Origin: Candidatus Sungiibacteriota bacterium
GTDB lineage: Bacteria; Patescibacteriota; Minisyncoccia; Sungbacterales; HO2-52-23
Direction of reading: 5' to 3'
Length of the DNA stretch: 64,000 nt
Assembly: GCA_016180435.1 (NCBI GenBank)
Contig: JACPBG010000004.1
Location: 59,660 to 123,659, forward strand
Position numbers and translations under genes: made by a program
Shown: in pieces, positions 6,015-39,299 of the stretch
How positions within the stretch are numbered: the first letter of the stretch is position 1
How the letters are laid out: each line of letters opens with the position of its first letter
Notes under the pieces: generated by a model
The model's input: the letters and a program-made list of their open reading frames with translations, nothing else
What the model was told of the DNA's origin: nothing
Database searches by the model: none

Positions 6015-6035
6015 TCAATTACATTATACGGCAAT

Positions 6036-6962: not shown

Positions 6963-6968
6963 AGCATA

Positions 6969-22684: not shown

Positions 22685-24145
22685 TTATTGAACGGGTTTG
22701 AATACTAATTGATTTTCGGAAACGCAAAGCAGCGTTTCTTTGCCATTGACGGTCGTATTCAGGACCACTTCGTGCCCCCAAAGCTGGCGAAGATACTGGA
22801 GCGTCTTCTCGGCATATTCTAACTGGAGGTCGCGGCCGTCATGGGCGTGCTTCAAATATAGCGTTCGCTCACTGTTATAATCGGCATCCTCAACTTTAAT
22901 GACCGGTATGGTTCCGGTGCCGACGTTTTGAATCAAAGTGTCTTTGATGCTCCGCCAGTTCTCCTCGTCGGCGACGCGGCTGATGACTTTGTCGTTGCCC
23001 CTGGTTTGATATTCAAACAGTTTGAGTTCGCGAACCAGGTCTTCAGTAAGGAATCGTCGAAGAAAAGATGTGTCCCGCTCAACTTCGCGCACCACAAATA
23101 TTTTATTCCTGCCCTGCATTGTTTTTATGTTCCAGTCGCTTCGTTCGCTAGCCGTACACAAATCATATTCCGGACCGAAACGGCCTTTATCCCACCGCTC
23201 TTCAATGTCTTCCCAGATTTTCATGCCAACATGATACGGATTTAGGCCGCCCGGAGTCGGACAGAGCACCTGCGTGTGGCGCACGATGAACTCCATATGT
23301 AGGTTTTGAGGCAGTTCTAGGGATTCAAGGATTCGTTTGTGCCAGAAGCTTGCCCAACCCTCGTTCATAATCTTGGTTTCCATCTGGGGAATGAAATACT
23401 GCGCTTGTTCGTGTACGATGGTCAAAAGGTCTTTTTCCCATTCCGCCAAGTGCGGGTTATGATCCCGCACAAAGAGAAGTATGTCTTCTTCCGGATAGGG
23501 CGGGACCTTTGTCAAGTCGGGTTCCACGTGTTCTACTCTCCGATGGATGGCGTGGTGCGGGTCATGCCTTGGCCTTGATTCATCGATTTTTCGTTCTTTC
23601 TGCTCTTTCTCGGTTTCTTTCTTGATGGAAAGATTCCGTCGGCATTGGAGCGATAGCGCGTGCGCCGCGTCAAGTACGCGCTCAACTTTTTCCAGTCCAA
23701 TGCTTGGATCCTCAATGTAGTGGCGCACGCGGTTGGCGTGAGCCTTGAATGTTTCAATAGTGTATTCCGTCTGGGTGGTTCTGAAAGTGAAGTTGTTCTT
23801 AAAAAAGTCGTTGTGCGCGTATACATGGGCGATGGTGAGAACCTGCAAGGCCAGACTGTTATCGCGCATGAGATAGGCGATGGAGGGATTGGAATTGATC
23901 ACCATCTCGTAGGGCAGGCCGCTGAGACCGTAGTCGTAAAGGGTTTTGAGTTTCTCGAACCCCTTGCCGTAAGACCAGTGGGGATAGTGGGAGGGCATGC
24001 CGGAATAGACCATATAAGAGAGCATCTGTTCATAGTCGCAGACCTCGAATTCCTGGGAATAGGGGTCAAGACCGAATTTTTGCACCAGTTCAACGATACG
24101 CTGGTTCCACTCCTGGAGATCTTCGGTTGTCCATTCTCTACTCAT
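22685..24145 (-). CDS. SpoVR/YcgB-family protein
   Basis: N-terminal similarity pattern to YcgB: ...SYMVYSGMPSHYPHWSYGKGFEKL...PYEMVINSNPSIAYLMRDNSLALQVLTIAHVYAHNDFFKNN. Confidence 0.8.
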   Translation of the reverse strand: MSREWTTEDLQEWNQRIVELVQKFGLDPYSQEFEVCDYEQMLSYMVYSGMPSHYPHWSYGKGFEKLKTLYDYGLSGLPYEMVINSNPSIAYLMRDNSLALQVLTIAHVYAHNDFFKNNFTFRTTQTEYTIETFKAHANRVRHYIEDPSIGLEKVERVLDAAHALSLQCRRNLSIKKETEKEQKERKIDESRPRHDPHHAIHRRVEHVEPDLTKVPPYPEEDILLFVRDHNPHLAEWEKDLLTIVHEQAQYFIPQMETKIMNEGWASFWHKRILESLELPQNLHMEFIVRHTQVLCPTPGGLNPYHVGMKIWEDIEERWDKGRFGPEYDLCTASERSDWNIKTMQGRNKIFVVREVERDTSFLRRFLTEDLVRELKLFEYQTRGNDKVISRVADEENWRSIKDTLIQNVGTGTIPVIKVEDADYNSERTLYLKHAHDGRDLQLEYAEKTLQYLRQLWGHEVVLNTTVNGKETLLCVSENQLVFKPVQ

Positions 24146-25346
24146 AATTCACCTCGTTTTTAATGTTTGCGCGGTCTTTGGCAAGAAAGGTCTTGAAGGC
24201 GGACCAGATATCCTCTTTGCGCTGGATTTGCACCGTGAGGAAGTTGGGCTCCTGGATCTGCGAGAAATACTGAATCATGCTGCTGCCGTAGTAGCCCGCG
24301 CCCAAGGGCTTGATTTCGCCGTAGCCAAACAGATTGGATATTTTGGCGAGTTCCCGCGCGGAATTTAGCGCGGCGGTATTGTCGGATTCGAAATTGTCGC
24401 CGTCGGAACAGTGAAAGGCGTAAACGTTCCAGAGAGCGGGATGATATCGTTCATTGATGACCTCCAGGGCCTTGTTGTAGCCGGATGAGATAAAGGTTCC
24501 GCCGGATTCGCCCTTGTGGAAAAACTCTTCCTCGGTCACTTCGCGGGCTTCGGTGTGATGGGCGATGAACACGATCTCGACGTTCTGATAGCGCGTGCGC
24601 AGGAATTGGTACAGTAAAAAGAAGAAACTGCGCGCTAGATACTTTTTCATTGTATCCATGGAGCCGGAAGTATCCATGATGGCCATAACTACGGCGTTGG
24701 ATTCGCGCCGCATCTCTTTGACAACATGGTGGTAGCGCAGATCATCCTCGTGAAAAGGAAAGCGCTCGCCGTGAAGATTCGCGGCACCGGAGCGATGTGC
24801 GGATTTTTTGCGTCGTACTCGGGCACGGGCAGTGCGTTTTTTGTCCAAGCGCACGCGGATGCCTTTTTTTCGGAATCCTTTTTGGCGGAGATGGTCTACC
24901 GTCACGATTTCGCGTAAGTGCTTGCGTTCCAGATCCGGCAGTTCCAGGTCTTCGAACATCACTTCAATCAACTCATCGAGGCTGACCTCGGTCTCGTAGT
25001 AATCAACGCCGGCTTGGTCTCCGGCTTGCTGGCCCTGAGCGCCTTTTTTGCCTTGGCCAATGGTTTGTCCGGGCTGCAGGTCACCGTCCCCGCCTTGTCC
25101 CACGCCGGGCGCGTTCTCTCCGTAAACGAAACGGTATTCTTTTACACCTCGAATCGGCACTTTGATCACGCGGTTTTTGTCTTTGCCGATAATGGATTCT
25201 TCGGCGATGATGTCGGCGATGTTGTTACGAATCGCCTCGCGTACTTTCTGGCGGTGGCGCTGGCGATCCCCGGCCGATCGGTCGCTGCGCTGTCCGGAGG
25301 AAGGGTGATATGGCCGAAATATAGTATCCATCCGATAAACCTCCAA
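24138..25346 (-). CDS. YeaH/YhbH-family protein (DUF444, vWA-like)
   Basis: DTSGSMD...YQNVEIVFIAHHTEAREVTEEEFFHKGESGGTFISSGY...WNVYAFHCSDGDN closely parallels E. coli YeaH core. Confidence 0.8.
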   Translation of the reverse strand: MEVYRMDTIFRPYHPSSGQRSDRSAGDRQRHRQKVREAIRNNIADIIAEESIIGKDKNRVIKVPIRGVKEYRFVYGENAPGVGQGGDGDLQPGQTIGQGKKGAQGQQAGDQAGVDYYETEVSLDELIEVMFEDLELPDLERKHLREIVTVDHLRQKGFRKKGIRVRLDKKRTARARVRRKKSAHRSGAANLHGERFPFHEDDLRYHHVVKEMRRESNAVVMAIMDTSGSMDTMKKYLARSFFFLLYQFLRTRYQNVEIVFIAHHTEAREVTEEEFFHKGESGGTFISSGYNKALEVINERYHPALWNVYAFHCSDGDNFESDNTAALNSARELAKISNLFGYGEIKPLGAGYYGSSMIQYFSQIQEPNFLTVQIQRKEDIWSAFKTFLAKDRANIKNEVNYE

Positions 25347-25435
25347 TTGTAAAAGGCCTGTTTCTGTATTCGTAGTAGTATCATAATCGGCAAATAAAGT
25401 CCACGGATAAAAAAAGACACCCTGGCCGGGTGCCG

Positions 25436-27427
25436 TTATTTAAAAATTCGTCTGGCGTAGCTTAACAGGTTCTGCCAGCAACACTCCCGGTATCCTCTAT
25501 TCTGCAATAGTTCTTTCTTTATTTTGTCTAGGTTCTGCTTGGCTTTGTTGGGGTCAATCCCTTTGTCTTTCTCTTGATCCAGTGAATTCCAACATACTGC
25601 ACGCCTCACTATATCGTGATATTCGCTTATGATTTGCTTGGTCACCGCTTCTTCGAGCGGCAGATGGCTATCAAAATCATACGGCGGATCTCCCGGCAGG
25701 TTAGAATCCACACATTTTCTGAAATCATCGGCAGCTACTCCAATCACCGCGATTTGTTCCTCAATCTTTTCAAGAAAGTCCCGATTTGGATCTATGCACG
25801 TCACCTTGTTTTCGGCGTCCCGGATTTCAACTTTTTGTTTTTTTAAAAGGGCTTTCGTGTGAACCGCATAATCGTTGAAATACGTTTTTTGCCGCTCGGT
25901 GAATGCGGAGGATCCGACATGGCCGCGTACCAAATCTTCAAAGGCGCGATCTTGATACCAATCCCCCTCCAGCGGCGCGTGATCATATTCTCCCGATGAA
26001 TTCTTATCAATGGGGACCCACTTTTTTATCCGCGCCAAAGAGTCGCTTTCAAGGTTTTCAAAATTGGCTTCACGAATCGTCCTGATAAATTGGTTGATGC
26101 CTATGCAATTGTTCTGTTGCCCGGCCAACGCCATCAGATTGCCACCTTGGCGCATAGTCAGGCCGCGCGTTCCGTCTTTAGGCCTTTTATCACAGAGTTC
26201 TCGAAAACTATGTTTGACGAGGAATTTTCTATCGTCAGAAATCATGGCGCCGCCGCCGTAAAAAAGCGCCGCCTCGGCATTTTCGAGCTTCAGCTTATAT
26301 GGATAGTTATCCGTGTCAAGACGAGATGCGGTTATTACCTGACAGGCGGCCTCCTCTACCCACGGGACAAAGTGAAAACTGCGTCCCTCACTCATTGATT
26401 CTTTGCGCTGAATCTTAAGTTCCGCAACCGGATCCATAACCATAGGAAATGTTACGGAAACCACTCGATCAATGAGCGCGTCCTCTTTTGGAAACGCCTC
26501 TTTGATCGTTTTATTACTAATGCTTACAACCGCTATGTCCGGCCACCAGTCGGTTTGATCCCGGCCCTTGAACCAGCCGTCGCTGACCATCCGGCTTAAC
26601 CTGCCGCAAAATTCTAGGTTTTGTGCGGGAAAGTCAACAAAGAAAAGCCCACCGTTGGCCAAATCAATTACTCGGTACCAATCCTCCGGAATTTTTGAAA
26701 CCCTGCCTTCCTTGTCAAATTCCGGTTCAGTCAACCTCCCCTCGATCTGCAACATCCCGATACCTGCCCCCAGGCGGTATTCAGATGATTTTACCGGCAT
26801 ATTTTCCCATTTTCCGCCAAATTCATTTTGAAAACGCTCTTCGCATCCTCGACACAGCCGTCCTCGAAAACGAGACAGGCGAGAAGCTATATTTTCATGG
26901 CATAACACCTTTTGAATATCATCCCGCGGGTGTCCTATTTTTTTCCGCAGTGTACGCGGAATGGCGTTTAACGGATGCTCGTGGTGCGGACATTCCTCAA
27001 GGTAAAAAAAGCTTTCTTCTTCCATTTTGTCCGCGATGAGTTTCAGCCACGTTGTCTTTCCTACCCCGGTTTTGCCGGTGACCTCGAGTATTCTCCGCTC
27101 CATGGCTCCGCCGGATGCTGCTTGTCTGAAGAATTCGCCTGTTTCCGCCAAATAGGGATCAATGCCGACAAGTTCATTTTTGAACAAAGGAAAACGCATA
27201 TACTGCGGCGGTTGATTGTGAAACAGATTTTTCTCACGCGGGGCCTTGAGCTCCGATAGGATTTCCGGCCCCTCCCCGTTTATAGTCGAGGAAATCGCTT
27301 TCCATACTTTGCTGTATGCGCGATCAAGCAGTTCGGGTTTTTCCTGGGCGCACCTTAAAAGGTCTCCAATTGTTTTGATTTCGCTTGACATTTTGTCAGC
27401 TCCTTTTCCGATTCTGATTTTATTCAA
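25436..27427 (-). CDS. PrkA-like paralog (divergent PrkA-family AAA/serine-kinase-like protein)
   Basis: Walker A VTGKTGVGKTTWL, CP..H..PL, FGGKWENMP, FLEKIEEQIAVIGVAADDFRKCV all parallel motifs in the adjacent canonical PrkA. Confidence 0.7.
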   Translation of the reverse strand: MNKIRIGKGADKMSSEIKTIGDLLRCAQEKPELLDRAYSKVWKAISSTINGEGPEILSELKAPREKNLFHNQPPQYMRFPLFKNELVGIDPYLAETGEFFRQAASGGAMERRILEVTGKTGVGKTTWLKLIADKMEEESFFYLEECPHHEHPLNAIPRTLRKKIGHPRDDIQKVLCHENIASRLSRFRGRLCRGCEERFQNEFGGKWENMPVKSSEYRLGAGIGMLQIEGRLTEPEFDKEGRVSKIPEDWYRVIDLANGGLFFVDFPAQNLEFCGRLSRMVSDGWFKGRDQTDWWPDIAVVSISNKTIKEAFPKEDALIDRVVSVTFPMVMDPVAELKIQRKESMSEGRSFHFVPWVEEAACQVITASRLDTDNYPYKLKLENAEAALFYGGGAMISDDRKFLVKHSFRELCDKRPKDGTRGLTMRQGGNLMALAGQQNNCIGINQFIRTIREANFENLESDSLARIKKWVPIDKNSSGEYDHAPLEGDWYQDRAFEDLVRGHVGSSAFTERQKTYFNDYAVHTKALLKKQKVEIRDAENKVTCIDPNRDFLEKIEEQIAVIGVAADDFRKCVDSNLPGDPPYDFDSHLPLEEAVTKQIISEYHDIVRRAVCWNSLDQEKDKGIDPNKAKQNLDKIKKELLQNRGYRECCWQNLLSYARRIFK

Positions 27428-27558
27428 AAGTTAACGTGCTGGGTTAGATATACGACATAATTATATAAAATACAAGGGCGTCTCGTACCAAATAAAATTC
27501 CCGTCACGTAAACGTAACGGGCTACTAAGTTCTAAGATCTAAGTTCTTGGTGCTTGTC

Positions 27559-29493
27559 TTAATCTTTCCACAGGTTATTGGCCGCGTATTTGAGAATCAC
27601 GTCCACGCAGCTCGGGCAGTATCCATGCTCAAGGAGATTTTTGGTCATCATGTCGTATTTTTCCGTTTGCTCCGTGTCGCGCATGCGCGACTTGGTGATA
27701 ACCCGGCTTAGGTCGCGCACCGAAGTGATGAGTTTTTTCTCAATGGCCTCTTTGAGTGGCTCGTAACTGCGGAAGTCAATCTTTTCTTCGCGCCGCTTGG
27801 CTGCCCATAGATAGGAGATCACTTCCTGGCGGAATCCGTCGGCGGCCGAGCCGATGATGGCGATTTGCTCCTCGATTGATTTCATGAATCCTTCGTCGGG
27901 CGCCAACTCTTCTTTGGTGTTGCGATCCTTTACTTTGCTCTTGTTAACGTAGGCCTCGGCGTGATCCAGGTAATTCTGGAATAGCGCCTCCGCCTGCTCC
28001 TGGTAGGAATAGACAAACGCGCGGGTAATCTCCTTTTCCAGCACCTCAAGGTACTCCTTGTGCAGTGTATCCTGGAGAAACTCCAGATACTGCTTGCGCA
28101 TTTCGTCCGACAGATCAGCTTCCTTCACCATGTTGATCAGCGCTTCCCGAACATTGATGGGGTTGATGCAGTTGCCAGCGGTATTGTCGGTGAGCGCGTT
28201 ATCCAAGGCCTTCATTATGAAGCGCGTGGAAATACCGTTCATGCCTTCGCGTTTGGCTGCCTCGCGCAATTCCTGTACATCAACTTTCTTGGTGCGCCCC
28301 TTCTCAAGCACCTCTTCGCCGTTATACAGCTTCAGCTTGGTCATGAGGTCGCACTTGTTGGTGGGCTCCAGGCGCGACAGGATCGCGAACATGGAGGCGA
28401 CCTCCAGGGTGTGCGGCGCCACGTGGGCGCGGAAGTCGGAGTTGCGGATGATCTTCTGATAAATTTTAACTTCTTCGGAGAGGCGCAGGTTGTAGGACAC
28501 GCGAATCACCACAATGCGATCCAGAATCGCTTCGTTGGTGTGGTCTCCCTTGAATTTCTGCCACTCAGCCTCGTTGGAATGGGCCACGATAACTGTGTCC
28601 ACATAGACCAATCCGTGGCGGCCGGGCGCGGGCACAACCTTTTCTTGGGTCGCCGTGATCATGCAATGGAGATACTCGATTTCGTTTTTGAAAACCTCAA
28701 TGAACTCAACTATGCCGCGGTTGCCAACATTAAGCGCGCCATTTAGTTCCAGGACCCGCGGATCGCCCTCGGAATAGAGATCCAACTTCGAGATATCTTC
28801 GCTGCCGATCAGTACGGAAGTATCTTGGTTATTGGAATCCACAGGCGGAACCGATGCGGTACCGACCCGCGCGCGTTTGGAAAATTCCACGGTAGTAATT
28901 GGGAAGTCCTCATACTTGCCGCCGAACTCTTCTTTAAGCCGATAACGGCAGACCGGACACAGGTCGCCTTCAATGTGAATTCCCAGCATCTTTTCAAATT
29001 CTTTTCTCAAGTGGCGCGGTATCAAATGCAGGGGCTCTTCGAACATCGGACAGCCATCAATGGCGAAGATGGGATCGCTTGCCTCCAGGCCTCGATTCAG
29101 TTTTTCCGCAAGCGAGCTTTTGCCGGAACCCACCGGACCCATCAGATAGAGCACCTGGCGGCTTTCTTCACCTTTGAGCGATGCGGCGTGGAAGTAGCGC
29201 ACGATCTGGCTGACTATTTTCTCGATGCCGAAGAACTCATCGGTGAAGAAATCGTAAACCTTGATTGACTCGTCTTTGAAAAGACGTTTAACGTGGGGGT
29301 CGGTGCTTTCCTGAATGTCGCGGACGCCTGCTTTGACGATGATGTCATAAAAACGGGCGTGAGCCAGCTTGGCGATGGAGGGATCTTCCTTGATCTTGTC
29401 GAGGTAGCCGAGTAGCTTCCCGCTCCAATCATTTCGCCTATGGTGTGTTTCTCGGTCCTGTCTGATCAGTTCTCTGTATTCGTCTTCGCTCAT
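27559..29493 (-). CDS. prkA: PrkA-family serine protein kinase (YeaG-like)
   Basis: LYLMGPVGSGKSSLAEKL, FGGKYEDFP, NGALNVGNRGIVEFIEVFK, HCMITATQEK, IVAHSNEAEW, EEQIAIIGSAADGFRQEV. Confidence 0.85.
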   Translation of the reverse strand: MSEDEYRELIRQDRETHHRRNDWSGKLLGYLDKIKEDPSIAKLAHARFYDIIVKAGVRDIQESTDPHVKRLFKDESIKVYDFFTDEFFGIEKIVSQIVRYFHAASLKGEESRQVLYLMGPVGSGKSSLAEKLNRGLEASDPIFAIDGCPMFEEPLHLIPRHLRKEFEKMLGIHIEGDLCPVCRYRLKEEFGGKYEDFPITTVEFSKRARVGTASVPPVDSNNQDTSVLIGSEDISKLDLYSEGDPRVLELNGALNVGNRGIVEFIEVFKNEIEYLHCMITATQEKVVPAPGRHGLVYVDTVIVAHSNEAEWQKFKGDHTNEAILDRIVVIRVSYNLRLSEEVKIYQKIIRNSDFRAHVAPHTLEVASMFAILSRLEPTNKCDLMTKLKLYNGEEVLEKGRTKKVDVQELREAAKREGMNGISTRFIMKALDNALTDNTAGNCINPINVREALINMVKEADLSDEMRKQYLEFLQDTLHKEYLEVLEKEITRAFVYSYQEQAEALFQNYLDHAEAYVNKSKVKDRNTKEELAPDEGFMKSIEEQIAIIGSAADGFRQEVISYLWAAKRREEKIDFRSYEPLKEAIEKKLITSVRDLSRVITKSRMRDTEQTEKYDMMTKNLLEHGYCPSCVDVILKYAANNLWKD

Positions 29494-29583
29494 CTTTTTT
29501 CTCCTTGTTTTGTGGCCAATATTGAGTTACCAAAGATCACATTACGTAAGCGCACTATAGCGCAAACCCCCATAAAAAGTCAA

Positions 29584-29684
29584 CCCCGTTAGAAGTTTGG
29601 TCCTGAAATCTCCATACGATTCAAATAATCCAACTATTATTGTGATGACGCATACACCGGGTGAGGATTACACTTCTAACGGGG
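29584..29684. repeat. RPE-like palindromic element family 1, intergenic copy
   Basis: CCCCGTTAGAAGT ... ACTTCTAACGGGG termini. Confidence 0.8.
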
Positions 29685-29929
29685 TCAACCCCCCAGTTTT
29701 GTACAATACGAGATTAGCCCCAAATAATCCTTAACTATACGGTATCAAAGGTAATTCCTCGACTCGCTCGGCTCGCTTGGAGAATATTGTTCGAGTTTAT
29801 CGAGAACCTTCCTAAGGTAACCGCGCAGCAAGCTGACGCGGAATTATCAAGTTAAAAAACCCATGAAATTCCATGGGCCCATTTTATTGAGGTGAAGACG
29901 GGGCGAGCAAGCCCGCGGTTTTCTGGGGC

Positions 29930-29962
29930 GCGGATAAAAAATCGGGCGAGGCCCGATTAAAT
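29930..29962 (-). terminator. rho-independent terminator downstream of Pup-like locus (AATCGGGCctcGCCCGATT + T-run on minus strand)
   Basis: hairpin followed by TTTTTTATCC on coding strand. Confidence 0.6.
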
Positions 29963-31674
29963 TAACTCATATTTATTTCATCTTCATTTTCCGGATGTGT
30001 ATCGGATATCGCCGGTCTGAATTTTTTGGCGGCGCGATTTACTTGCGCCAGCGCTTTTCTGTCGCGGGCGGATATTTTGTAACGCTCCGGGTCGAGGTTT
30101 TTGATATATAGGATTTTGGCGGATCTCTTGCCTGCATTAAATACAAAAGTAAACTCTTCCCAAACAGAGTCAACCAGGCATTTTTTATCGAGCTCGCGGG
30201 AAAAAATTATCCGGAGTATTTCTTCGCGCCAGTTAGCGCGCGTGCGTTCCGGCGGATTTTGCGTGGCCCACCTGACAAGATTTTCCGGAAATAATTTTTT
30301 AATAAGGCCGGCGCGAAGATACTGGCCGTAGGGACTTTGGGCGGTGTCCATGAATGCGTACTCGGATATGAACTCAAGAATATCTCGCAAAACATCCTGG
30401 TTGGAAGATGTGGGGATTTTTCCAACCGGCCGTTCTTCGCCGCGCGGCAGGATAGCTTCCGGATCAAACCCTCGGCTTTTCAGATACGGCATGATAAAAT
30501 AATGCAAAATCGCGGCCCAATCCAGGAATTGCGCAAGATACGGGAGGTCCCAGTGGGCGATCGCATCAATTATGTTTTCCCAGAGATTAAGGGCAAGTTT
30601 CCGTTCCGGGCTGAAGGATTGGCGTCCCGGCCCCGCAAAAAATTCCTGCGCCTGTTTTATGTAGAAGCGCTGGAAATCAAGCGCGTTCCAGCGTAAACCC
30701 TCTTCCAGAAGCGAAACCGGATTTTTTGATCCGGGGTCGGCGTTAAAAAAAAGCGAGGCCTCGAATAAATCCATCGGATAAATGTTCGGCGGGATCTTTA
30801 GAAATTTCTCTTCGGCCATGGTCAGAATAATGTCCAGCGTTGCATATTTCAAAAACAATTGCCATGCGGACATCGTGGAATTTCCTGACACATCATGGTG
30901 GCGTCTCCATCTCGTTTTGTCTGCGTATTGAGAATCTTTTTTTGAGAAGAAACTGGGTTTGTCTTCGGCCTTCCTGTTATTTTTCATGACCTCGGCGCGT
31001 TGGGAGAGGACAAACTGCAGGGTGTTGTCCGTTGCATTGATTTTTATCCAGCCGTTTCCAATAAGGCACCAGCGCGATATTAAAAACGGTATAATTAATT
31101 CGAAAAAATCACTGCGTTTGGAAAAGACCGATTTTTTTACCAAATAATTGGCATGCGAGCCCCAGCTGTTAACATCTAAATCCACCATCGGATACAATTC
31201 CACGTCGTAACAACAATTTCGGTTGGTCTTATAAAGTTTGAAATCCAAACCGGTTTTTCTTTTCAGGCGCCGCATCATCTGCGTCATAATCTGGAGCCCC
31301 GCGCTCTCAAAAAGCGCAAGTTCCAGGGCGCCCAGGCACTCCGGAGTGGAATATTCCACATGTTCGTTATCTATATAGATGATTCCTTGATTAGGAAGAA
31401 CGGCTTTGGGACGCCGGTTTGAGAAGCTGTCGTCATCCGGGTTGATTAGCCGGCGGCGGTCTTGTTTTGAAACCGCAGCGCGCAGAATCAATGGCTGATT
31501 TTCCGATTCCTTGACAAGAAGAAAAGGCTCCGGCGAACTTAATTCATTTTCGGCGCCCATGATGCGATGGATTATTCTTTCGGTTTTTTGCGAACCCATG
31601 CGTGTACCGTATTGAATTGGCAAGTTCCTGAATAAAGCATCGCAAGATATACGAAATAAAGCAAGCGGCGGCAT
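29962..31674 (-). CDS. PafA/Dop-family (Pup ligase/deamidase family) homolog 2; start may be internal Met (~31599)
   Basis: RIMGAENE (cf. RIMGIETE), IYIDNEHVEYSTPEC (cf. LYLDVGSHPEYATAEC), WGSHANYLV (GCHENYL), FVLSQRAE (LSQRA), RRHHDVSGNSTMS (RRLHVIVGDSNMS). Confidence 0.7.
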   Translation of the reverse strand: MPPLALFRISCDALFRNLPIQYGTRMGSQKTERIIHRIMGAENELSSPEPFLLVKESENQPLILRAAVSKQDRRRLINPDDDSFSNRRPKAVLPNQGIIYIDNEHVEYSTPECLGALELALFESAGLQIMTQMMRRLKRKTGLDFKLYKTNRNCCYDVELYPMVDLDVNSWGSHANYLVKKSVFSKRSDFFELIIPFLISRWCLIGNGWIKINATDNTLQFVLSQRAEVMKNNRKAEDKPSFFSKKDSQYADKTRWRRHHDVSGNSTMSAWQLFLKYATLDIILTMAEEKFLKIPPNIYPMDLFEASLFFNADPGSKNPVSLLEEGLRWNALDFQRFYIKQAQEFFAGPGRQSFSPERKLALNLWENIIDAIAHWDLPYLAQFLDWAAILHYFIMPYLKSRGFDPEAILPRGEERPVGKIPTSSNQDVLRDILEFISEYAFMDTAQSPYGQYLRAGLIKKLFPENLVRWATQNPPERTRANWREEILRIIFSRELDKKCLVDSVWEEFTFVFNAGKRSAKILYIKNLDPERYKISARDRKALAQVNRAAKKFRPAISDTHPENEDEINMS

Positions 31675-31710
31675 GAAAAAACGGGGAATATTCCCCGTAG
31701 AAATAAGTAT

Positions 31711-31911
31711 TTATTCGCCTTTTTCCTGTATGTGGCGGCGCCTTTTGCGTCGGGCCTTTTTCTTCAGATCCTTCTTGTTTTTCTTGAGTACCTCGTTGAT
31801 CCTTTTCTTTATTTCCTCCGCTTCCTCAACTGTGGCTCCAGGATTATTTATCACACCCCGCTCGGGGATATTGAATTCCGGGCGCTCTATTTTCTCGCGT
31901 TTTACCGGCAT
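31711..31911 (-). CDS. candidate Pup/UBact-like small protein modifier (66 aa, ends -QEKGE)
   Basis: located between two PafA/Dop homologs; helical segment ATVEEAEEIKKRINEVLKKN resembles Pup Mpa-binding helix TEETDDLLDEIDDVLEENAE; C-terminal Gly-Glu like Pup -GGQ/-GGE. Confidence 0.5.
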   Translation of the reverse strand: MPVKREKIERPEFNIPERGVINNPGATVEEAEEIKKRINEVLKKNKKDLKKKARRKRRRHIQEKGE

Positions 31912-31974
31912 AAAGACCTAATTTGCGCATATTTATCGGTTCTCATAACATTTTACGCCATATCCGAAAAATCA

Positions 31975-33567
31975 TCAAACGCAGAATTTCACAACTTTAA
32001 CCGGAATCATTCTTTCGGCATCGGCCAGAAATTTTTCAAGCGGCAGAGCCAGAAGCTGATCGGCAACTCCTTGGTTCCACATAAGAGTCGGGTCTTGGAA
32101 ATAAAGTTCTGCGCGGACAGTTCTTTTGGCCGGATTTTTAAATGAAATCATGTGCCAATAATTAGAGTCCGCAATATTTTTTTTGAAGCGGCGCGCCACA
32201 TTCATAATCCAGCGCGAGCGGGTTAGGGGCGGGGCGCCCACGGCGCCGTTGATATCCTGGTCGTGCGTAATGCGTCCGTTTTTGGCGAAAATTTCGCGCT
32301 GGAACACGCTTTCCGGATCATTATCATGGTATTCGTAGTCAAGCCCCATGGCTAAATCGCTTTTCCAGCCCCCTCGCTCTTGGGAGACGGCGTTTTGTAT
32401 GAATAGGAATTTGGTCGGCCAATCCAAAACGCCATAAAGCGATTCGTAGTCGCGCCGGAAAAGTTTTTTAAGAATATCGGCCAGGCGCGCTAAAACATCA
32501 TAAAGCACTTCATTTTCCGGATGATATTCATCCAGATAATTTCCGAAAAGTTCGTAATAATCCCAAAGGCAATCAAGCGCGAGGCGCGTTCTTTTTTTAT
32601 TTCGCAAAGTAACGCGGTGCGTCATGTCAAGCGAGCGCGAAATTGCCCAAAATTCTTTAACAGGATCCATGAGGGCGAAGCGGTTGTCCAGTACCTCATC
32701 CTCAAGCATCATAAAAAGTATGGATGTTAAGCCAATTTTGAGATACTCCGGAATTTCCAGCATATTGGAATCGCCGGGAATAACATGTATTCGGCGGAAG
32801 CGTCCGGCGTCGGCATACGGAGCGTCGCGGGTGTTATATATTCCCCGATCCTCCATGGTGTCCAGTCCCCACTCGCAGGTGAAAAAATCAGCGCGCTGGG
32901 AAATCTGGTAAGGCGCCTCCGGGGTGCAGTTGTCTGCCCCGATTTTGCCGGCTCCGATAAGAGGCGTGCGCAACACCAGCCACGGCACCGTATGCGATAT
33001 TAATTTTTCTAAAGGAATCCGGCGCAAAACCGTATAATTTTCGTGGCAAGCAAAAGAGTTGCGGGCGCCGGAGCCAGGAATATAATCTTGCGGTTTTCCG
33101 GCAACGTTATTTCTAATTACGGCGTATTTTTTTCTGTGAACCTCCTCGTGTTTTTTTCGCAAGAAATCAATTATGCGGTAACAGGCGCGATTCCAGGTAA
33201 TGAGCATTTTCGGATCAGAGCAGATCGGAGTTGAAATCTCGACATGCGCGCCATCAAGATATAGCCGGGCGCCGTTGGCAAGCAATATATTTTCACGCGA
33301 GCACCAGGAGTTCTCCTCAAAAAAATCATGATTTTTAGCGTCAGCATTTTTGGAAAGATCGCTAAACAACTCCGCTCGTATTTGCGGGCTTAATCTCTCC
33401 TGCGGATTCCACGGGATCATGCATGCATCCGGCATCCATTCGGGTTGGATGGATTGAATGAATTTGGCGTTGGCCGATATAGGGCCTGCGCGGGATGACA
33501 GATCAATGATCCCGAATTCGGTTTCAATCCCGCACATCTTGGGAATGGCGCGTGATTCTTTTGGCAT
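31975..33567 (-). CDS. PafA/Dop-family homolog 1 (clear member)
   Basis: MCGIETEFGI, NGARLYLDGAHVEISTP, FACHENY, ISQRADF, YNTRDAPYADAGRFRRIHVIPGDSNM. Confidence 0.85.
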   Translation of the reverse strand: MPKESRAIPKMCGIETEFGIIDLSSRAGPISANAKFIQSIQPEWMPDACMIPWNPQERLSPQIRAELFSDLSKNADAKNHDFFEENSWCSRENILLANGARLYLDGAHVEISTPICSDPKMLITWNRACYRIIDFLRKKHEEVHRKKYAVIRNNVAGKPQDYIPGSGARNSFACHENYTVLRRIPLEKLISHTVPWLVLRTPLIGAGKIGADNCTPEAPYQISQRADFFTCEWGLDTMEDRGIYNTRDAPYADAGRFRRIHVIPGDSNMLEIPEYLKIGLTSILFMMLEDEVLDNRFALMDPVKEFWAISRSLDMTHRVTLRNKKRTRLALDCLWDYYELFGNYLDEYHPENEVLYDVLARLADILKKLFRRDYESLYGVLDWPTKFLFIQNAVSQERGGWKSDLAMGLDYEYHDNDPESVFQREIFAKNGRITHDQDINGAVGAPPLTRSRWIMNVARRFKKNIADSNYWHMISFKNPAKRTVRAELYFQDPTLMWNQGVADQLLALPLEKFLADAERMIPVKVVKFCV

Positions 33568-33649
33568 ATTCCGCCCCTTTTAAAAAGCTGATCCCAGCGT
33601 AGCAGGTTTTGGGCCAAAATAAAATACCCCCGCGCGCTGCGTAGGGGCG

Positions 33650-33856
33650 TTATTTTGGATGGTTGCGATTTTCGCGGATGTCCTGGAATCTTCGGAGCAT
33701 CGCTTTTTGGGCGGATTCCAAAATATCAGACCGCAGGATTTTGAGCGATTGGTCAGTTCCGTGTTCAAGCCGTTTTAGTGCGGCCAGCTTGGCATTGCGG
33801 ACCGTTTCCTCGATCATGGCGCCGGTTATTACGTCAATTCCCTGTGACCTTTGCAT
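33650..33856 (-). CDS. small hypothetical helical protein overlapping AAA gene 3' end
   Basis: ORF only. Confidence 0.25.
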   Translation of the reverse strand: MQRSQGIDVITGAMIEETVRNAKLAALKRLEHGTDQSLKILRSDILESAQKAMLRRFQDIRENRNHPK

Positions 33857-34994
33857 TTCCGTTGTCCGCTTTCAGTTCATCCATGTCAAATGGCAGCTCG
33901 GGCAGGAGGTATTTTCTAAAAATATCTTTGGTGCCGCTGGTGCCTGGGGCCTTGATTTCAAGTATAAGATCAATGCGGCCCGGCCGTATCACGGCGCGGT
34001 CAAAAATGTCGCGGCGGTTTGAAGCAAAAATAACCAAGACATTATCGAGTTTTTCCAGGCCGTCAAGTTCTCCCAGAATTTGCGATACCAGCGGGTCAAA
34101 AAGCTGGGAATTGATTCCGGCCGAGTCGCGCGGGCGCAAAATGGACTCCGCTTCGTCAATAAATATTACGCACGATTCGCGCCGCGCTTCGGCAAAAACC
34201 ATGCGAACTTTTTCTTCTCCGGTGCCGATCAGCGGCCTAAGAAACTCCGCGCTGTTAAAATAAAGGAATCGTCGTCCGAGTTCTTTGGCCAGCGCTTTGG
34301 CCAGCATGCTTTTTCCGCAGCCCGGGGGGCCGATTAGCAGCACGCCCTTGGTGGGACGTAAATTTAACTTTCGGAAGGCGTCCGGGAAGCGTTGCGGATA
34401 TTCTATGGCCGCGCGCAGTTCCTCGATTTCTTTATCCAGGCCGCCGATATCCGAAAAACTTACATCCAGCGCATAGTCCTTGGCAAATGAGGGCGGTGTC
34501 GGCTCGGGCAGTTTTTCAAAAAGAAAACCAGACGCTGAATCCATCAGGAGCTTATCGCCCGGTTTCAATTCTTGTGACCGAAGGGACGAGGCCAGAACGC
34601 CAACCGGCTCTCGGGATTGATGTGCAACCAACGCGCGACCGTTATCCAGTTTTTCTTTAAATGTAACGGCAACGCCCGAACGGATGGGTGCGCGTACTTT
34701 GCCGATAATGTTCATGGCCGAATTTAAAATTACCACATCTCCGGGTTCCAGCGCGTCAGCGCCCCGTGCATTATAGAATGGATTACCTACCCTTATGGGT
34801 ACTGGTCGGCCGTCGGCAAAAACATCTACGGTTTTGTCGTCATTATGTTGCCCTAAAATTCCATAATAAAAAGGCGGTTTTGAAATTTTTTCCGTGTACG
34901 CCAGGGCGTTTTTAAGCGCTTGCTCAAGTTCGGAATTCCTTCTTTCCAGAAGAACAATCTCGCGCAGCGTGTGGGCAGATTTATTACGGGCCAT
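33834..34994 (-). CDS. short proteasomal-ATPase-like AAA+ protein (coiled coil + single OB-like + AAA), Mpa/ARC/PAN-like but lacking C-terminal HbYX/GQYL tail
   Basis: Walker A GPPGCGKSMLAK, Walker B VIFIDEAES, second region RPGRIDLILE; N-term coiled coil LREIVLLERRNSELEQALKNA. Confidence 0.75.
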   Translation of the reverse strand: MARNKSAHTLREIVLLERRNSELEQALKNALAYTEKISKPPFYYGILGQHNDDKTVDVFADGRPVPIRVGNPFYNARGADALEPGDVVILNSAMNIIGKVRAPIRSGVAVTFKEKLDNGRALVAHQSREPVGVLASSLRSQELKPGDKLLMDSASGFLFEKLPEPTPPSFAKDYALDVSFSDIGGLDKEIEELRAAIEYPQRFPDAFRKLNLRPTKGVLLIGPPGCGKSMLAKALAKELGRRFLYFNSAEFLRPLIGTGEEKVRMVFAEARRESCVIFIDEAESILRPRDSAGINSQLFDPLVSQILGELDGLEKLDNVLVIFASNRRDIFDRAVIRPGRIDLILEIKAPGTSGTKDIFRKYLLPELPFDMDELKADNGNAKVTGN

Positions 34995-35092
34995 TTGTCG
35001 ATTTTTCCTGGAAAAGTTCTACTTTATTCTTATCATCCCGCGTCAAATAGCGCAAATTAAAAATCGGCCCGGCGGGGTCTTAGTTTTTGAAA

Positions 35093-35164
35093 TGGGGATG
35101 GCAGGGATCGAACCTGCGACGGCCGTCTTATAAGGGCGGTGCTCTACCACTGAGCTACATCCCC
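35093..35164 (-). tRNA. tRNA with anticodon TAT (UAU; Ile-type), acceptor GGGGATG/CATCCCC
   Basis: anticodon loop CTTATAA read by hand from cloverleaf; one C:A mismatch in anticodon stem. Confidence 0.6.
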
Positions 35165-35246
35165 ACAAAAAAGCTTGCCCTCCTAAATTTTGCAATACAA
35201 AATTTTGGAGGGTGAAGAAGGACAAGCCAAGCCACATGCTCATAAA

Positions 35247-37082
35247 TTATTCCTTCACCAACTTTTCAAATTCATCCCGCTCAATTGTTTCTCTTTCCAC
35301 AAGTATTTTGGCGATTTCATCAAGTTTCGCGCGGCGGCGCGTTAAAATTTCCCGCGCGCGTTTCTCCGCACCGGTAATCAATTTTTTGATTTCCTCGTCA
35401 ATAATGCGCGCGGTTTCTTCCGAATAATTGCGTTCGGTGGTGAGTTCGCGTCCCAAAAACACCAACTCTTCTTTCTCGCCAAGCGTCATGGGGCCGACTT
35501 TATCCGACATCCCGAAGCGCATGACAAGCGATCGCGCCAGGTCGCTGGCTTTTTTCAGGTCATCGTGCGGTCCGGTGGTGATGTCCGCAAAGACCAATTT
35601 TTCCGCAACAAACCCGCCCAGAGCCACTGCCAATTCATTCAGCAGATAACTTCTGGAATGCAGATGCCGGTCTTCGGTCGGAAGTTTCAGGGTATAACCG
35701 GCGGCGCGGCCTCGCGACACTATGGATACTTTATGGATCGGATCAACGCCCTTAAGGGATGCGGCCACCAGAGCGTGTCCTCCTTCGTGGTAAGCCGAGA
35801 TTTTTTTCTCTTCGGGCGACAAAATATGGCTTTTTCTTTCCGGCCCCAACATAACTTTTTCAATGGAATTAATAAGATCCATTTGTGATACTTTTTTCTG
35901 ATTTTCGCGCGCAGCCAGTATCGCCGCTTCATTCACCAGATTGGCCAAATCCGCGCCGGAAAATCCCGGGGTGCGTTCGGCAATTCTCCGCAGATTTACA
36001 TCATTGGCCAGGGGTTTATTAGCCGAATGAATATGCAAAATCGCTTCGCGGTCATTAATGTCCGGCAAATCCAGCGTAACCCTACGGTCAAACCTGCCGG
36101 GACGTAAAATCGCGGGGTCCAAGACGTCCGGACGATTCGTGGCCGCCATAACTATGACGCGGTCATCCGTTTCCATGCCATCCATTTCTACAAGAATCTG
36201 ATTCAGAGTTTGTTCGCGCTCATCATGACCTCCGCCAAGTCCGGCTCCGCGGATTCTTCCTATGGCATCCAATTCGTCAATAAAAATTATGGAGGGTGCG
36301 GCTTTTTTGGCAAGCCGGAATAAATCTCGGGTGCGTGAAGCCCCGACTCCCACGAACATTTCAATAAATTCCGAGGCGGACATGTGGAAAAACGGAACCC
36401 CGGCTTCTCCCGATACTGCCTTGGCAAGCAGTGTTTTTCCGGATCCCGGGGGACCCATCAAAAGCACGCCTTTCGGTATTTTGGCGCCGATGTCAAGGAA
36501 TTTCTTGGGGCTTTTCAGAAAATCCACTATTTCTTTTAGTTCCTCTTTGGCTTCTTTTACTCCGGCCACGTCTTTAAACATCACCCGTTCCTTTTTATTG
36601 TCCGGTGAGATCATGCGCGCCTTGGATTGGCCGAAGGTAAAGGCCTGCATGGCTCCGCGCTGGACCTGGCGCGCCGTAATCCAGAAAAAAAGAGCGATGA
36701 GAAGAACCGGCCCCAGGATCGGCAAAATAAATCCGAGAAAGAAATTCCATACCCCCTGGTTTTTGATCCCGATTTTTACCTCTTTTAATTTTTCTGGATC
36801 CACCCCGTAGTTTCTTAGGGTTTCGGTAAGTTCGGCCTGCGGCTCTTTTTCCGCGCGAAGTTCCTCACCCGAACGAGTGCGGATTTCAAGAGTAGAGTCC
36901 ACGATAGTGATCTCCGCAATTTCGCCCGCATTAACTTGGGCCGCAAGATCGGACAGCGGAATTTCTTTCACCTCACGGAGCGCTCCCGCCAACATAGAAT
37001 AAAATACTGAAATAGACATCAGTATAACCAGCGCCCACAAAAAATTTTTAGATAGATTTTTCATCCCGCACATAACCTGCAC
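35247..37082 (-). CDS. ftsH: ATP-dependent zinc metalloprotease FtsH
   Basis: N-term 2 TM, Walker [33 protein letters not shown] zinc motif. Confidence 0.9.
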
Positions 37083-37407: not shown

Positions 37408-38181
37408 TTGGAGGTACACATGAATGCGCCGAAAGAACTAAAAACTAAAGCGATTTATTTGAGAAAACGTGGTTTGAGTTATAACGAAATCCGACATCAC
37501 GTGCCGGTTGCAAAAAGCACATTAAGCTTGTGGCTTAAAAGCACCCCCCTCTCAAAAGAGCATAAACGTAGATTATATACCAAAAATATTCTTCTTCTTT
37601 CACGCGGACCAAATAGTCAACACGAAAGAAGAAAAAGGGAGATTGAAGCAATCATAGCACGGGCACATAGTGAGATTCATTTGCCGATTCAGCCGGAAAC
37701 ATTCCAGCTTATGGGCGCGGCGTTATATTGGGCAGAGGGAAGCAAGACGAAGAAATTTGAGTTTACAAATTCAGACCCGCATTTTATTCTTTTTATGGTT
37801 AGATGGGCAGAAAAAATTTTTGGTCTTTCCAGTAAAACCTTTAGTGCTACGTTAAATATCTATCCGCAACAAAACGAGGTACGGCTCAAAAAATTCTGGT
37901 CGGAACTGACAAACATTCCATTACATAATTTCGGAAAAAGTTTTGTTAAGCCGCTAAGCAAGAATTACAAGAAAAATAATCTTTACTACGGAACGATAAA
38001 AGTTTATGTGCCGCGAGGTACTGATATGCGTCATCGCGTTTTTGGATGGATTGAAGCCGCCTTGAAAAATATAGAACCGAAAGTAAATTCTATAACCAAG
38101 CGCTGGATATCTTTAAAAAAAACGCCGCGTCCTGTTAATTTATCCCCCCATAACTCAATTGGTAGAGTACCCGCCTCTTAA
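37408..38181 (+). CDS. HTH-containing protein with LAGLIDADG-like motif (homing-endonuclease-like); 3' end overlaps tRNA-Lys
   Basis: N-term HTH LRKRGLSYNEIRHHVPVAKSTLSLWLK; LMGAALYWAEGSK resembles single LAGLIDADG motif. Confidence 0.4.
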   Translation: MEVHMNAPKELKTKAIYLRKRGLSYNEIRHHVPVAKSTLSLWLKSTPLSKEHKRRLYTKNILLLSRGPNSQHERRKREIEAIIARAHSEIHLPIQPETFQLMGAALYWAEGSKTKKFEFTNSDPHFILFMVRWAEKIFGLSSKTFSATLNIYPQQNEVRLKKFWSELTNIPLHNFGKSFVKPLSKNYKKNNLYYGTIKVYVPRGTDMRHRVFGWIEAALKNIEPKVNSITKRWISLKKTPRPVNLSPHNSIGRVPAS

Positions 38182-38216
38182 GCGGAATGTTCCAGGTTCG
38201 AGCCCTGGTGGGGGGA
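38144..38216 (+). tRNA. tRNA-Lys (anticodon CTT)
   Basis: acceptor CCCCCCA/TGGGGGG, anticodon loop CTCTTAA, T-loop TTCGAGC. Confidence 0.8.
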
Positions 38217-38423
38217 AAATGCGGAGCATTTTCCGAGTTCACTTCCTGCTCTCCGTTCATTCATGAACGCAGAAATTGAAGTTAACTCCGGGCTGTGCCT
38301 AGGAGGCACGGAAATGATTGCCATTATTTTCCCCACTTATTGAACGATGCGCGAACTTATAAAAAAATGTGCTTGACTCAAAAAATGCGTATAATATTGA
38401 TATAAATCAAGTATTATAAAAGC

Positions 38424-39299
38424 ATGAAAAAAAATAAAGGGCCGGACAATCAAATTGCAATTTTTGAAAACTTTAAAATCCGCCGTCACTATGACGAAAA
38501 GGCGGAGATTTGGTATTTTTCAGTAATTGACATTATCCGAGTATTGATTGGTCAATCGGGTTATCAAGCCGCCAGAAATTATTGGAAAGTGCTTAAAAGC
38601 CGTCTGAAAACGGAGGGAAGTGAACTGGTTACAAAATGTAACCGGTTGAAAATGACAGCAGAAGACGGAAAGATGAGAGAAACCGACGTTGCAAACATCG
38701 AAACTATTTTACGATTAGTTCAATCCGTTCCTAGTCCAAAGGCCGAGCCGATAAAGCTTTGGCTGGCTAAAGTCGGCCATGAAAGAATTCAGGAGTTGGC
38801 TGATCCGGAAAAATCTTTAAATCGTGCCAGAGAAAATTGGAAAAAGCACGGCCGCAGTGGAAAGTGGATCCAGCAGAGGATGATGGGGCAGGAAACTAGA
38901 AATAAGTTAACTGATTATTGGAGCGGCCATGGCATTAAAGAAAAAGATGAGTTTGCCATTCTTACTAACATCATCCACCGGGAATGGTCTGATTTGACGA
39001 TCAAAGAGCACAAGAATTTGAAAGGTTTGAAAACGCAGAATCTGCGCGACCACATGAATGAAGCCGAACTAATTTTTACGGCTTTAGCCGAGTTGTCCAC
39101 TCGGCAAATCGCGGAAACGACGGAAGCCATGGGCGTAGATGAAAATAAAGTGGCCGGTAAAAGAGGCGGCGGCATTGCTAAGAAAGCGAGAATTGATTTG
39201 GAAAATAAAACCGGAAGGAAGGTGGTCACCGGAGACAATTATTTAAAGAATGCTGAAAGTAAAAAATTGCCGGAACAAGGCGTTCCGGTAAAGCTCTAA
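38424..39299 (+). CDS. Bro-N domain protein (DinD-like / antirepressor-like)
   Basis: IAIFENFKIRRHYDEKAEIWYFSVIDIIRVL matches Bro-N N-terminal pattern. Confidence 0.5.
   Translation: MKKNKGPDNQIAIFENFKIRRHYDEKAEIWYFSVIDIIRVLIGQSGYQAARNYWKVLKSRLKTEGSELVTKCNRLKMTAEDGKMRETDVANIETILRLVQSVPSPKAEPIKLWLAKVGHERIQELADPEKSLNRARENWKKHGRSGKWIQQRMMGQETRNKLTDYWSGHGIKEKDEFAILTNIIHREWSDLTIKEHKNLKGLKTQNLRDHMNEAELIFTALAELSTRQIAETTEAMGVDENKVAGKRGGGIAKKARIDLENKTGRKVVTGDNYLKNAESKKLPEQGVPVKL

Follow-up and report, generated by a model that had tools for sequence, protein, structure and literature searches.

To our knowledge, pupylation is known almost entirely from Actinobacteria, and UBact, the proposed counterpart from Gram-negative phyla that was reportedly described by Lehmann et al. 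2017, has as far as we know not been biochemically characterised. A proteasome-independent use of the system is said to exist in Corynebacterium, where Kuberl et al. 2016 reportedly described ferritin disassembly with Pup, PafA, Dop and ARC and without 20S. We know of no general attribution of proteasomes to bacteria of the candidate phyla radiation (CPR), and in the library that was searched we found no literature on pupylation or Pup systems in Patescibacteria or CPR. In this regard, we analysed a stretch of 64,000 nucleotides from a Candidatus Sungiibacteriota bacterium (contig JACPBG010000004.1), hereafter called the window, in which a small open reading frame (ORF) of 66 amino acids (aa) lies between two genes of the Pup-ligase family. 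We describe its product as a candidate charge-inverted tag of the Pup family and compare it with the known systems.

The small protein resembles Pup in its size of about 65 aa, in its disordered N-terminus followed by a C-terminal helix, and in its Gly-Glu end, which is like that of PupE. Its gene comes next after a Dop-like gene, with an Mpa-like ATPase gene close by, as the positional equivalent of Pup in sister Patescibacteria, and its hydrophobic and neutral residues (I, L, L, N/A, Q, G, E) appear in the same linear order as in Pup. It differs in that it is undetected by Pup hidden Markov models (HMMs), carries a net charge of +10 against -6 to -15 in Pup, has one Gly instead of two and does not clearly preserve the aromatic/hydrophobic face of Pup helix 2. 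The system around it differs as well: the ATPase is short, without a GQYL end and with a coiled coil of about 40 aa, there is no 20S gene in the 64 kb, and no C-type ligase paralogue (see below) lies nearby.

With UBact (PF20513, NF033388) the small protein shares its basic character and small size, an MP start, a Lys/Pro-containing N-terminus and a single Gly before the terminal Glu/Gln, and both are tied to PafA/Dop-family genes in non-actinobacterial phyla. However, it has no HMM match to UBact, reaches a profile probability of only 5.8%, and lacks MPERIQKP and VDPxQxxRYRQRTG[EQ]; the UBact genes that we sampled stand directly upstream of proteasome beta and alpha subunits, which the window locus does not have. 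The arrangement in Corynebacterium is similar in that enzymes of the Dop/PafA family and an ATPase of the ARC type accompany a Pup-type tag in a locus that has no proteasome genes, and this likeness suggests tagging for unfolding or remodelling rather than for 20S degradation. In Corynebacterium, though, Pup is acidic and canonical and so are the enzymes, whereas in the window the tag, the ATPase and one enzyme appear remodelled and FtsH is a conserved neighbour.

A small gene in the slot of pup

The original prediction had described a 66-aa ORF ending in Gly-Glu at 31711-31911, and the translation from the minus strand matches it exactly. An identical protein is annotated by NCBI as a hypothetical protein in a metagenome-assembled genome (MAG) of Candidatus Sungbacteria. 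Homologues were sought among 5.8 billion proteins by word-indexed search and among 1.84 billion cluster representatives by exhaustive HMMER, which together returned only five clusters, namely the window protein and four relatives (82, 79, 58 and 44% identity), with lengths of 64-66 aa. Because these five clusters are all that both searches found, the family is rare, and all of it falls in one Sungbacteria-related clade in public data; sequences intermediate between this basic family and acidic Pup were found in neither search. In all five members the gene lies between homologues of the same two Pup-ligase-family genes, called gene 1 and gene 2 below. Two of the members are on short contigs, for which the flanking fragments were checked by BLASTP (gene 2 there is 61% and 43% identical). 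The family is known only inside this type of locus.

Pairwise ratios of nonsynonymous to synonymous substitution (dN/dS, Nei-Gojobori) among the small ORFs ranged from 0.19 to 0.28, with synonymous sites saturated in the distant pairs. Between the window and its relative L001, the ratio was 0.20 for the small ORF, 0.22 for gene 1, 0.17 for gene 2 and 0.27 for the ATPase gene. The start, the length of 64-66 aa, the stop position, an N-terminal E-R-P, N45 and a C-terminal H-[IM]-Q-E-x-G-E are invariant in five of five members; the penultimate Gly and the terminal Glu are directly followed by the stop codon, and the residue before them, which stands at the first Gly of Pup, is K, S or N. Given the conserved synteny, length, start and stop and a dN/dS near 0.2, like that of the neighbouring genes, the small ORF is a real gene under purifying selection. 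The orthologues that the original prediction had proposed to look for at the same position in related genomes were thus found, between the same two flanking genes, and its other concern, that the ORF might be a non-coding spacer, was not borne out.

The placement between two ligase-family genes, where pup sits, was likewise confirmed, since both flanking genes match PF03136 and the pup gene of a relative occupies the same slot. Loci with canonical Pup in Patescibacteria were located through homologues of gene 1 (36-60% identical). In L089, a complete 923-kb Sungiibacteriota genome, the order of ATPase, gene-1 orthologue, 65-aa Pup (…EEFVRSYVQRGGE) and gene-2 orthologue is the order of the window, and this Pup matches PF05639 at E 7e-18. 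The Pup proteins of L174 and L090 end in …EEFVKAYVQRGGE and …EEFVKSYVQRGGQ, respectively, and the tags of all three loci score as Pup. RecG flanks the locus in the window, L089 and L174. Because related Patescibacteria carry canonical Pup in the same slot, the window ORF is the positional equivalent of pup, and we regard the gene neighbourhood as the decisive element where Pup ancestry is concerned.

Putative expression signals are present on both sides of the small ORF. The sigma-70-like promoter match upstream is the sole one in the region and, with shuffled sequences averaging 1.2 matches, is alone no better than chance; its sequence is conserved in L001 and L005. A Shine-Dalgarno sequence, GAGG, stands 7 nt before the ATG in L001 and L005, and the window has TAGG there. 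The terminator-like hairpin past the stop codon has a 7-bp stem with 5 GC pairs (-11.8 kcal/mol, z = -2.25). An equivalent hairpin with a T-run follows the small ORF in L001, L092 and L093 (the sequence in L093 differs), and one also follows canonical pup in L174.

Relationship of the small protein to Pup and UBact

AlphaFold2 predicts residues 1-27 to be unstructured (pLDDT 60-66) and residues 28-64 to form a single helix (mostly pLDDT >90), in which the stretch 28-54 is amphipathic and comparable to the Pup helix in hydrophobic moment. The disordered N-terminus and the amphipathic helix that had been proposed from the sequence therefore agree with the model, and the strongly basic tail is evident from the net charge together with the isoelectric point of 10.3, compared with 4.1-4.8 in Pup and 10.4-10.9 in UBact. 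Over the last 30 residues the net charge is +11, against -6 to -9 in Pup. The likening of the -KGE end to Pup -GGQ/-GGE holds for the invariant terminal Gly-Glu, but it does not hold for the first Gly.

A profile of the five-member family was compared by hhalign with a profile of 16 Pup sequences and with a UBact profile built from 39 real sequences recovered from metagenomes. Against Pup the score was 24.2 with a probability of 49.7%, pairing RINEVLKKNKKDL with EIDEVLEENAEEF; 200 composition-preserving column shuffles gave 9.2 +/- 1.9 with a maximum of 16.0, and the reversed profile, which preserves periodicity, gave 14.0. A MAFFT alignment of the family with Pup is gap-free over the last ~36 residues. 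Conserved in it are I, L, L, A, R, Q, G and the terminal E, and at about nine positions where Pup has Asp/Glu the family has Lys/Arg. We also exchanged E/K and D/R in silico in the Pup alignment, a charge swap that is descriptive and not an evolutionary model. The family aligned with the swapped profile over 45 columns without a gap to the C-terminus (probability 94.4%, score 38.8; shuffles 10.5 +/- 2.5, maximum 19.9; reversed profile 20.9), and MAFFT gives the same gap-free register. Judged by this gap-free alignment, the non-charged scaffold of the small protein is collinear with that of Pup. The N-terminal MP…K…RPE motif also resembles that of L174 Pup (MPQEQVSKKRPED). These profile comparisons are suggestive of remote homology and no proof of it; taking them with the gene neighbourhood, we consider it probable that the small protein is an undescribed, derived variant of the Pup kind that descends from Pup.

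Against UBact the hhalign score was 17.1 with a probability of 5.8% (shuffle maximum 16.5), and Pup against UBact scored 14.3. The UBact motifs MPERIQKP and VDPxQxxRYRQR[TS]G[EQ] are absent from the family in comparison with the 39 UBact sequences. The original prediction had called the basic tail more UBact-like, which is right for the charge, but the profile lies closer to Pup than to UBact. Since the profile is nearer to Pup and the loci of the nearest relatives carry Pup and not UBact, the basicity of the small protein is best read as a derived change from Pup that is parallel to, and not shared with, that of UBact. As for the UBact loci themselves, the UBact genes of soil metagenomes in L126, L130, L155 and L102 (~6001-7800) lie directly upstream of prcB- and prcA-like proteasome genes, and tblastn with the enzymes of the window found no ligase homologue within ~6 kb of the sampled UBact genes.

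Ligase-family partners, ATPase and the wider locus

Gene 1 scores higher with the NCBIfam model of Dop (TIGR03688; 257.9 bits, cut-off 492.3) than with that of PafA (204.3), both below the curated cut-offs, and its best relatives in the PDB are the Dop structures 4B0R and 5LRT (E 2e-57; PafA 5e-33). Its W53, R101, Y103, D105, CHENY, R247 and H261 align with Dop W47, R90, Y92, D94, H155, R227 and H241, and the equivalent of Dop T217 is also kept; the roles of the Dop catalytic residues have been described, with T217 and R227 contacting the Pup C-terminus and the phosphate (PMC8599861). The Dop-loop is present with its conserved Trp, and the spacing from GxExE to YxD is 90 residues, compared with 79-88 in Dop and 47-48 in PafA. 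Neighbour joining places the clade of gene 1 and its Patescibacteria homologues (A-clade) outside actinobacterial Dop and PafA. We therefore call gene 1 Dop-like, for its architecture with a full catalytic set, and do not name it a Dop orthologue.

Gene 2 matches Dop at 2e-27 and PafA at 6e-17 in the PDB, and its score with the NCBIfam PafA model (TIGR03686) is 125.9 against a cut-off of 551. It probably starts at Met26 (31599), given the L092 orthologue and the overlap of the longer frame with the terminator. Like PafA it has no Dop-loop, with a motif spacing of 60 residues against 47-48 in PafA, and its motifs read NQGIIYID (Dop R90 replaced by I), SHANY (E by A), GNGW, KKD (R227 by K) and SGNSTM (D by N). 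The neighbour-joining tree of the Patescibacteria paralogues resolves three clades, namely A (gene-1 type), B (gene-2 type) and C (loop-less, with more canonical motifs). The signature of the B-type clade is SH(A/G)NY for HENY, GNGW for GAG(K/R) and SGNS(N/T)M for GDxNM, without an equivalent of the Dop R90 Arg. The clade is found in canonical-Pup loci too, where L089_547, L090_553 and L174_541 have the same HANY, GNGW and SGNS motifs (L089:10254-11897, L090:4013-5674 on the minus strand, L174:3869-5494). Because these motifs coexist with canonical Pup, they are no sign of decay, and because gene 2 is under purifying selection the B-type paralogue is probably an enzyme of altered activity rather than an inactive one. 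The PafA-like C-type paralogue occurs in L090, L174, L175 and L176. A genome-contig profile search with the ligase alignment gave, among the matches listed, only Actinomycetota, Nitrospirota, Rokubacteria and Poribacteria, which were used as controls for Pup and proteasome; no Patescibacteria were among the matches listed.

The ATPase matches the NCBIfam model pup_AAA (TIGR03689) at E 2.7e-83, below the cut-off, and contains two proteasomal-ATPase OB domains and an AAA domain. The intact ATPases of the window clade (L001, L005, L091) have 469-475 aa with a coiled coil of ~40 aa before a Pro-Pro hinge, and they end in …REERTRQK (L001, L005) or …ERHHG (L091), without GQYL. In canonical-Pup Patescibacteria the ATPases have 582-678 aa, a long N-terminal coiled coil and a GQYL or GHYL end (L089:5990-7918, L090:5859-7895, L174:1783-3672, L175:3492-5336, L176:4999-6747), and the C-terminal region of the window clade is shorter by ~65-145 residues. 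In Mpa, opening of the 20S gate requires the GQYL motif, and Pup is recognised by the coiled coil (PMC8142254). No 20S proteasome subunit was detectable in the window with tblastn or phmmer --max (queries confirmed by PF00227), and neither a second pup nor a UBact gene is present in the window. For the loci with GQYL- or GHYL-ending ATPases, gene calling in the fetched flanks gave no proteasome genes. FtsH adjoins the Mpa-like ATPase in six Patescibacteria loci (window, L001, L089, L090, L175, L176); in precomputed Pfam matches the FtsH beside the Pup locus of L176 (L176:895-4089), with 1064 aa, carries an intein with a LAGLIDADG-type homing endonuclease.

Table 1 Features of the window in and around the small ORF.
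Feature	Coordinates	Strand	Remarks
Candidate charge-inverted Pup-family tag	31711..31911	-	ATG start, 66 aa, TAA stop; MPVKREKIERPEF…RRRHIQEKGE
Sigma-70-like promoter match	31950..31978	-	TTGATG-17-TAAAAT; overlaps upstream gene's stop codon, ~40 nt before ATG
Intrinsic-terminator-like hairpin	31675..31698 (hairpin 31698-31681)	-	ACGGGGAATATTCCCCGT, then TTTTTT; 13 nt past stop codon
Pup_ligase-family gene 1 (A-type), 530 aa	31975-33567	-	PF03136 E 8.5e-90
Pup_ligase-family gene 2 (B-type), 545 aa from Met26	29962-31599 (open frame to 31674)	-	PF03136 E 3.7e-55
Mpa/ARC-like AAA+ ATPase	gene 33650..34994 (listed frame 33834-34994)	-	TIGR03689, OB and AAA domains
FtsH (AAA domain and M41 protease)	35247-37082	-	Pfam domains; directly upstream of ATPase
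PrkA	27559-29493	-	
PrkA-like	25436-27427	-	
DUF444	24138-25346	-	
SpoVR	22685-24145	-	

Several other features of these loci are recorded here. A block of PrkA, a divergent PrkA-like protein, DUF444 (YeaH-like) and SpoVR (22685-29493, minus strand) directly follows gene 2; it is also present in L001 and L003 and is absent from the canonical-Pup loci. Synonymous divergence (dS) between the window and L001 over 24138-37082 is 1.2-1.3 for FtsH and DUF444 and 0.9 for PrkA, compared with 0.35-0.53 for the ATPase, gene 1, the small ORF, gene 2 and the PrkA-like gene, and such several-fold differences among adjacent genes are a hint that the tag block has recombined or been passed between lineages. 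At 37408-39299 (plus strand), between FtsH and a 183-aa ORF, the window has two ORFs, one without a Pfam match and the other with Bro-N (E 2e-7); L001 has a small ParE-toxin-like pair at this position instead, and the place looks like a variable or mobile insertion site. Canonical loci also contain a protein of ~525 aa without a confident Pfam family (L089:11986-13572, L090:61-1626 on the minus strand, L175:10468-12039). Its copies are 57-62% identical, the one in L090 with a sub-threshold match to Glyco_trans_2_3 (E 1e-4), and the window has none; the protein may be a hitherto undescribed part of the canonical Patescibacteria Pup systems.

Covalent tag or another role

The core of the original prediction, a candidate Pup/UBact-like modifier between two PafA/Dop homologues, is supported by the conserved synteny, the purifying selection, the terminal Gly-Glu, the predicted disorder and helix, and the Pup found in the same slot of L089 and L174. 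We lean, by a small measure, towards a derived, charge-inverted tag of the Pup family that is still covalently ligated via its terminal Glu. Such a tag would descend from the canonical acidic Pup that still occupies the same slot in sister Patescibacteria. Its N-terminal segment (MPVKxxKxERPEF) would be free, and its C-terminal part would be an amphipathic helix with Gly-Glu at the end. On its own the protein would be disordered, and it would have kept the hydrophobic/neutral scaffold and the terminal Q-x-x-G-E with nearly all acidic helix positions turned into Lys/Arg. Since the gene already encodes the terminal Glu, no deamidation would be needed. By analogy with the described chemistry, the gamma-carboxylate of this Glu would be phosphorylated with ATP in a glutamine-synthetase-like active site and then attacked by a substrate lysine (PMC8599861). 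The Dop-like enzyme, with its Dop-loop and complete catalytic set, would remove the tag, and the short Mpa/ARC-like ATPase would recognise the tagged proteins. The classical Pup-proteasome role is unlikely because the locus shows no proteasome; as there is neither a GQYL tail on the ATPase nor a 20S gene in the window, tagged proteins would probably be unfolded or remodelled independently of the proteasome, or passed on to a different protease such as FtsH. The proposal of FtsH as the downstream protease comes from its recurrence beside the Mpa-like ATPase and is speculative. The strongest hint that the ligation chemistry survives is the invariant free Gly-Glu terminus; by analogy we infer covalent ligation, the identity of the ligating enzyme and the fate of the substrates.

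A number of observations weigh against such a tag. None of the five members matched the curated models of Pup (PF05639, TIGR03687) or UBact (PF20513, NF033388) in Pfam and NCBIfam at E<=10. The controls were strong, with 65.7 and 82.2 bits (Pfam) and 52.6 and 62 bits (NCBIfam) for the Pup of L089 and L090, and 74.3 and 72.9 bits for UBact with PF20513 and NF033388, respectively. A local Pup HMM gave E 5.4 with the small protein. As the models of both families fail on it, we do not file the small gene, on these sequence criteria, as a member of Pup or UBact. A profile search of PDB sequences with the family returned only generic or designed helices and no Pup chain, and the hhalign probability against the unmodified Pup profile is just ~50%. 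When the family and Pup are aligned in the gap-free register, K, R and H take the place of F, V and Y on the hydrophobic face of Pup helix 2, and only one Gly remains of the Pup diglycine. On the side of the enzymes, gene 2 lacks the equivalents of R90, the HENY Glu, R227 and the GDxNM Asp, and with these substitutions there is no obvious canonical ligase in the window, where tblastn found only the A and B types and no C-type or third paralogue. No directional charge compensation was seen when ligase homologues from basic-tag loci and from acidic-Pup loci were compared naively, column by column and without structural mapping (one flipped column in the A-type, 20 flips in both directions in the B-type). 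The ATPase gene of the window has a 65-bp deletion relative to L001 and L005 with a frameshift after codon 381, such that residues 1-381 lie at 33852-34994 and the last 65 codons lie in another frame at 33650-33847, 88% identical to L001; this is either a recent lesion with pseudogenisation or an assembly error. In addition, 64 kb of the genome are visible, so the absences at the level of the locus cover the window alone.

These observations bear differently on the alternatives. A spurious reading frame in an intergenic spacer would explain why the ORF is short and of low complexity and why antisense frames are open in some relatives too. However, in the window the antisense frames are open by composition only and in L092, L005 and L093 they are broken, the length, start and stop are kept despite saturated synonymous divergence, relatives have a Shine-Dalgarno sequence, and a terminator follows the stop; with its ends invariant and its dN/dS of about 0.2 equal to that of the neighbouring genes, we rejected this reading as virtually inconceivable. 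True membership in the UBact family would account for the basic isoelectric point, for the single Gly before the terminal Glu/Gln (as in UBact RTG[EQ]) and for an hhalign score just over the shuffle maximum. We nevertheless rejected it as very improbable, because neither UBact model matches, with the control at 73-74 bits, and the profile similarity is weak; moreover, the hallmark motifs are missing, the sampled UBact genes stand directly upstream of proteasome subunits of which the window has none, and the nearest relatives carry Pup. It is also conceivable that an unrelated small basic protein replaced pup and that its Gly-Glu end and helix are coincidental or convergent. HMM-level similarity to Pup or UBact is indeed lacking, K/E-rich amphipathic helices readily give weak profile matches (the best PDB matches are designed helical proteins), and the charge swap does not model evolution. 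Yet the gene has the same slot, strand, size (64-66 vs 65-68 aa) and following terminator as the pup of the sister lineages, its hhalign score exceeds all shuffles and the reversed control, the two sequences align collinearly and without gaps right up to the C-terminal residue, the N-terminal motif resembles that of L174 Pup, and the family is confined to this type of locus, which together make replacement improbable.

The remaining alternative accepts descent from Pup and takes the small protein to be no longer a covalent tag; it would instead act non-covalently on the Dop-like enzyme, the divergent paralogue or the short ATPase as an adaptor, inhibitor or regulator, or be a polybasic helix that binds nucleic acid or acidic surfaces, and the locus would stand outside classical pupylation. 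The missing PafA-like C-type paralogue fits this, as do the altered metal- and phosphate-binding motifs of the B-type enzyme, the ATPase that has lost its long coiled coil, C-terminal region and GQYL and is frameshifted in this MAG, the loss of the helix 2 hydrophobic face in the gap-free register and the lack of compensatory charge changes in the enzymes. On the other hand, the terminal Q-E-x-G-E and the stop are invariant down to 44% identity with saturated synonymous sites, and a free C-terminal Glu is therefore hard to see as unimportant. No catalytic residue is missing from the A-type enzyme, T217 and R227 included (PMC8599861), and B-type enzymes with the same motifs coexist with canonical Pup in L089, L090 and L174. 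Both enzyme genes and the ATPase are kept under purifying selection (dN/dS 0.17-0.27). We thus regard a role other than covalent tagging as rather unlikely.

A covalently ligated, charge-inverted tag can be extended into a wider proposal, which we put forward tentatively. The small protein may represent a third sequence class of prokaryotic ubiquitin-like tag, an acid-to-base-inverted descendant of Pup that would be ligated via its C-terminal Glu by a non-canonical A- or B-type enzyme in a CPR bacterium without a proteasome, with its substrates passing to a truncated, GQYL-less unfoldase of the ARC type and perhaps to FtsH. In this lineage the tag would have kept its architecture, its position and its reactive C-terminus while its charge was reversed, and the unfoldase would have lost its proteasome-docking elements. 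The current HMMs of Pup and UBact miss real positional orthologues of this kind. If the small protein is conjugated, the ligation chemistry tolerates a polybasic tag, ubiquitin-like tagging reaches ultra-small Patescibacteria without a proteasome, and the locus offers a natural "orthogonal" pair of tag and enzyme for probing how Dop, PafA and Mpa recognise Pup. If it does form a third class, neither the acidity of Pup nor its coupling to 20S would be essential to the tagging chemistry, and the recognition between the tag and its partners would have been rewired.

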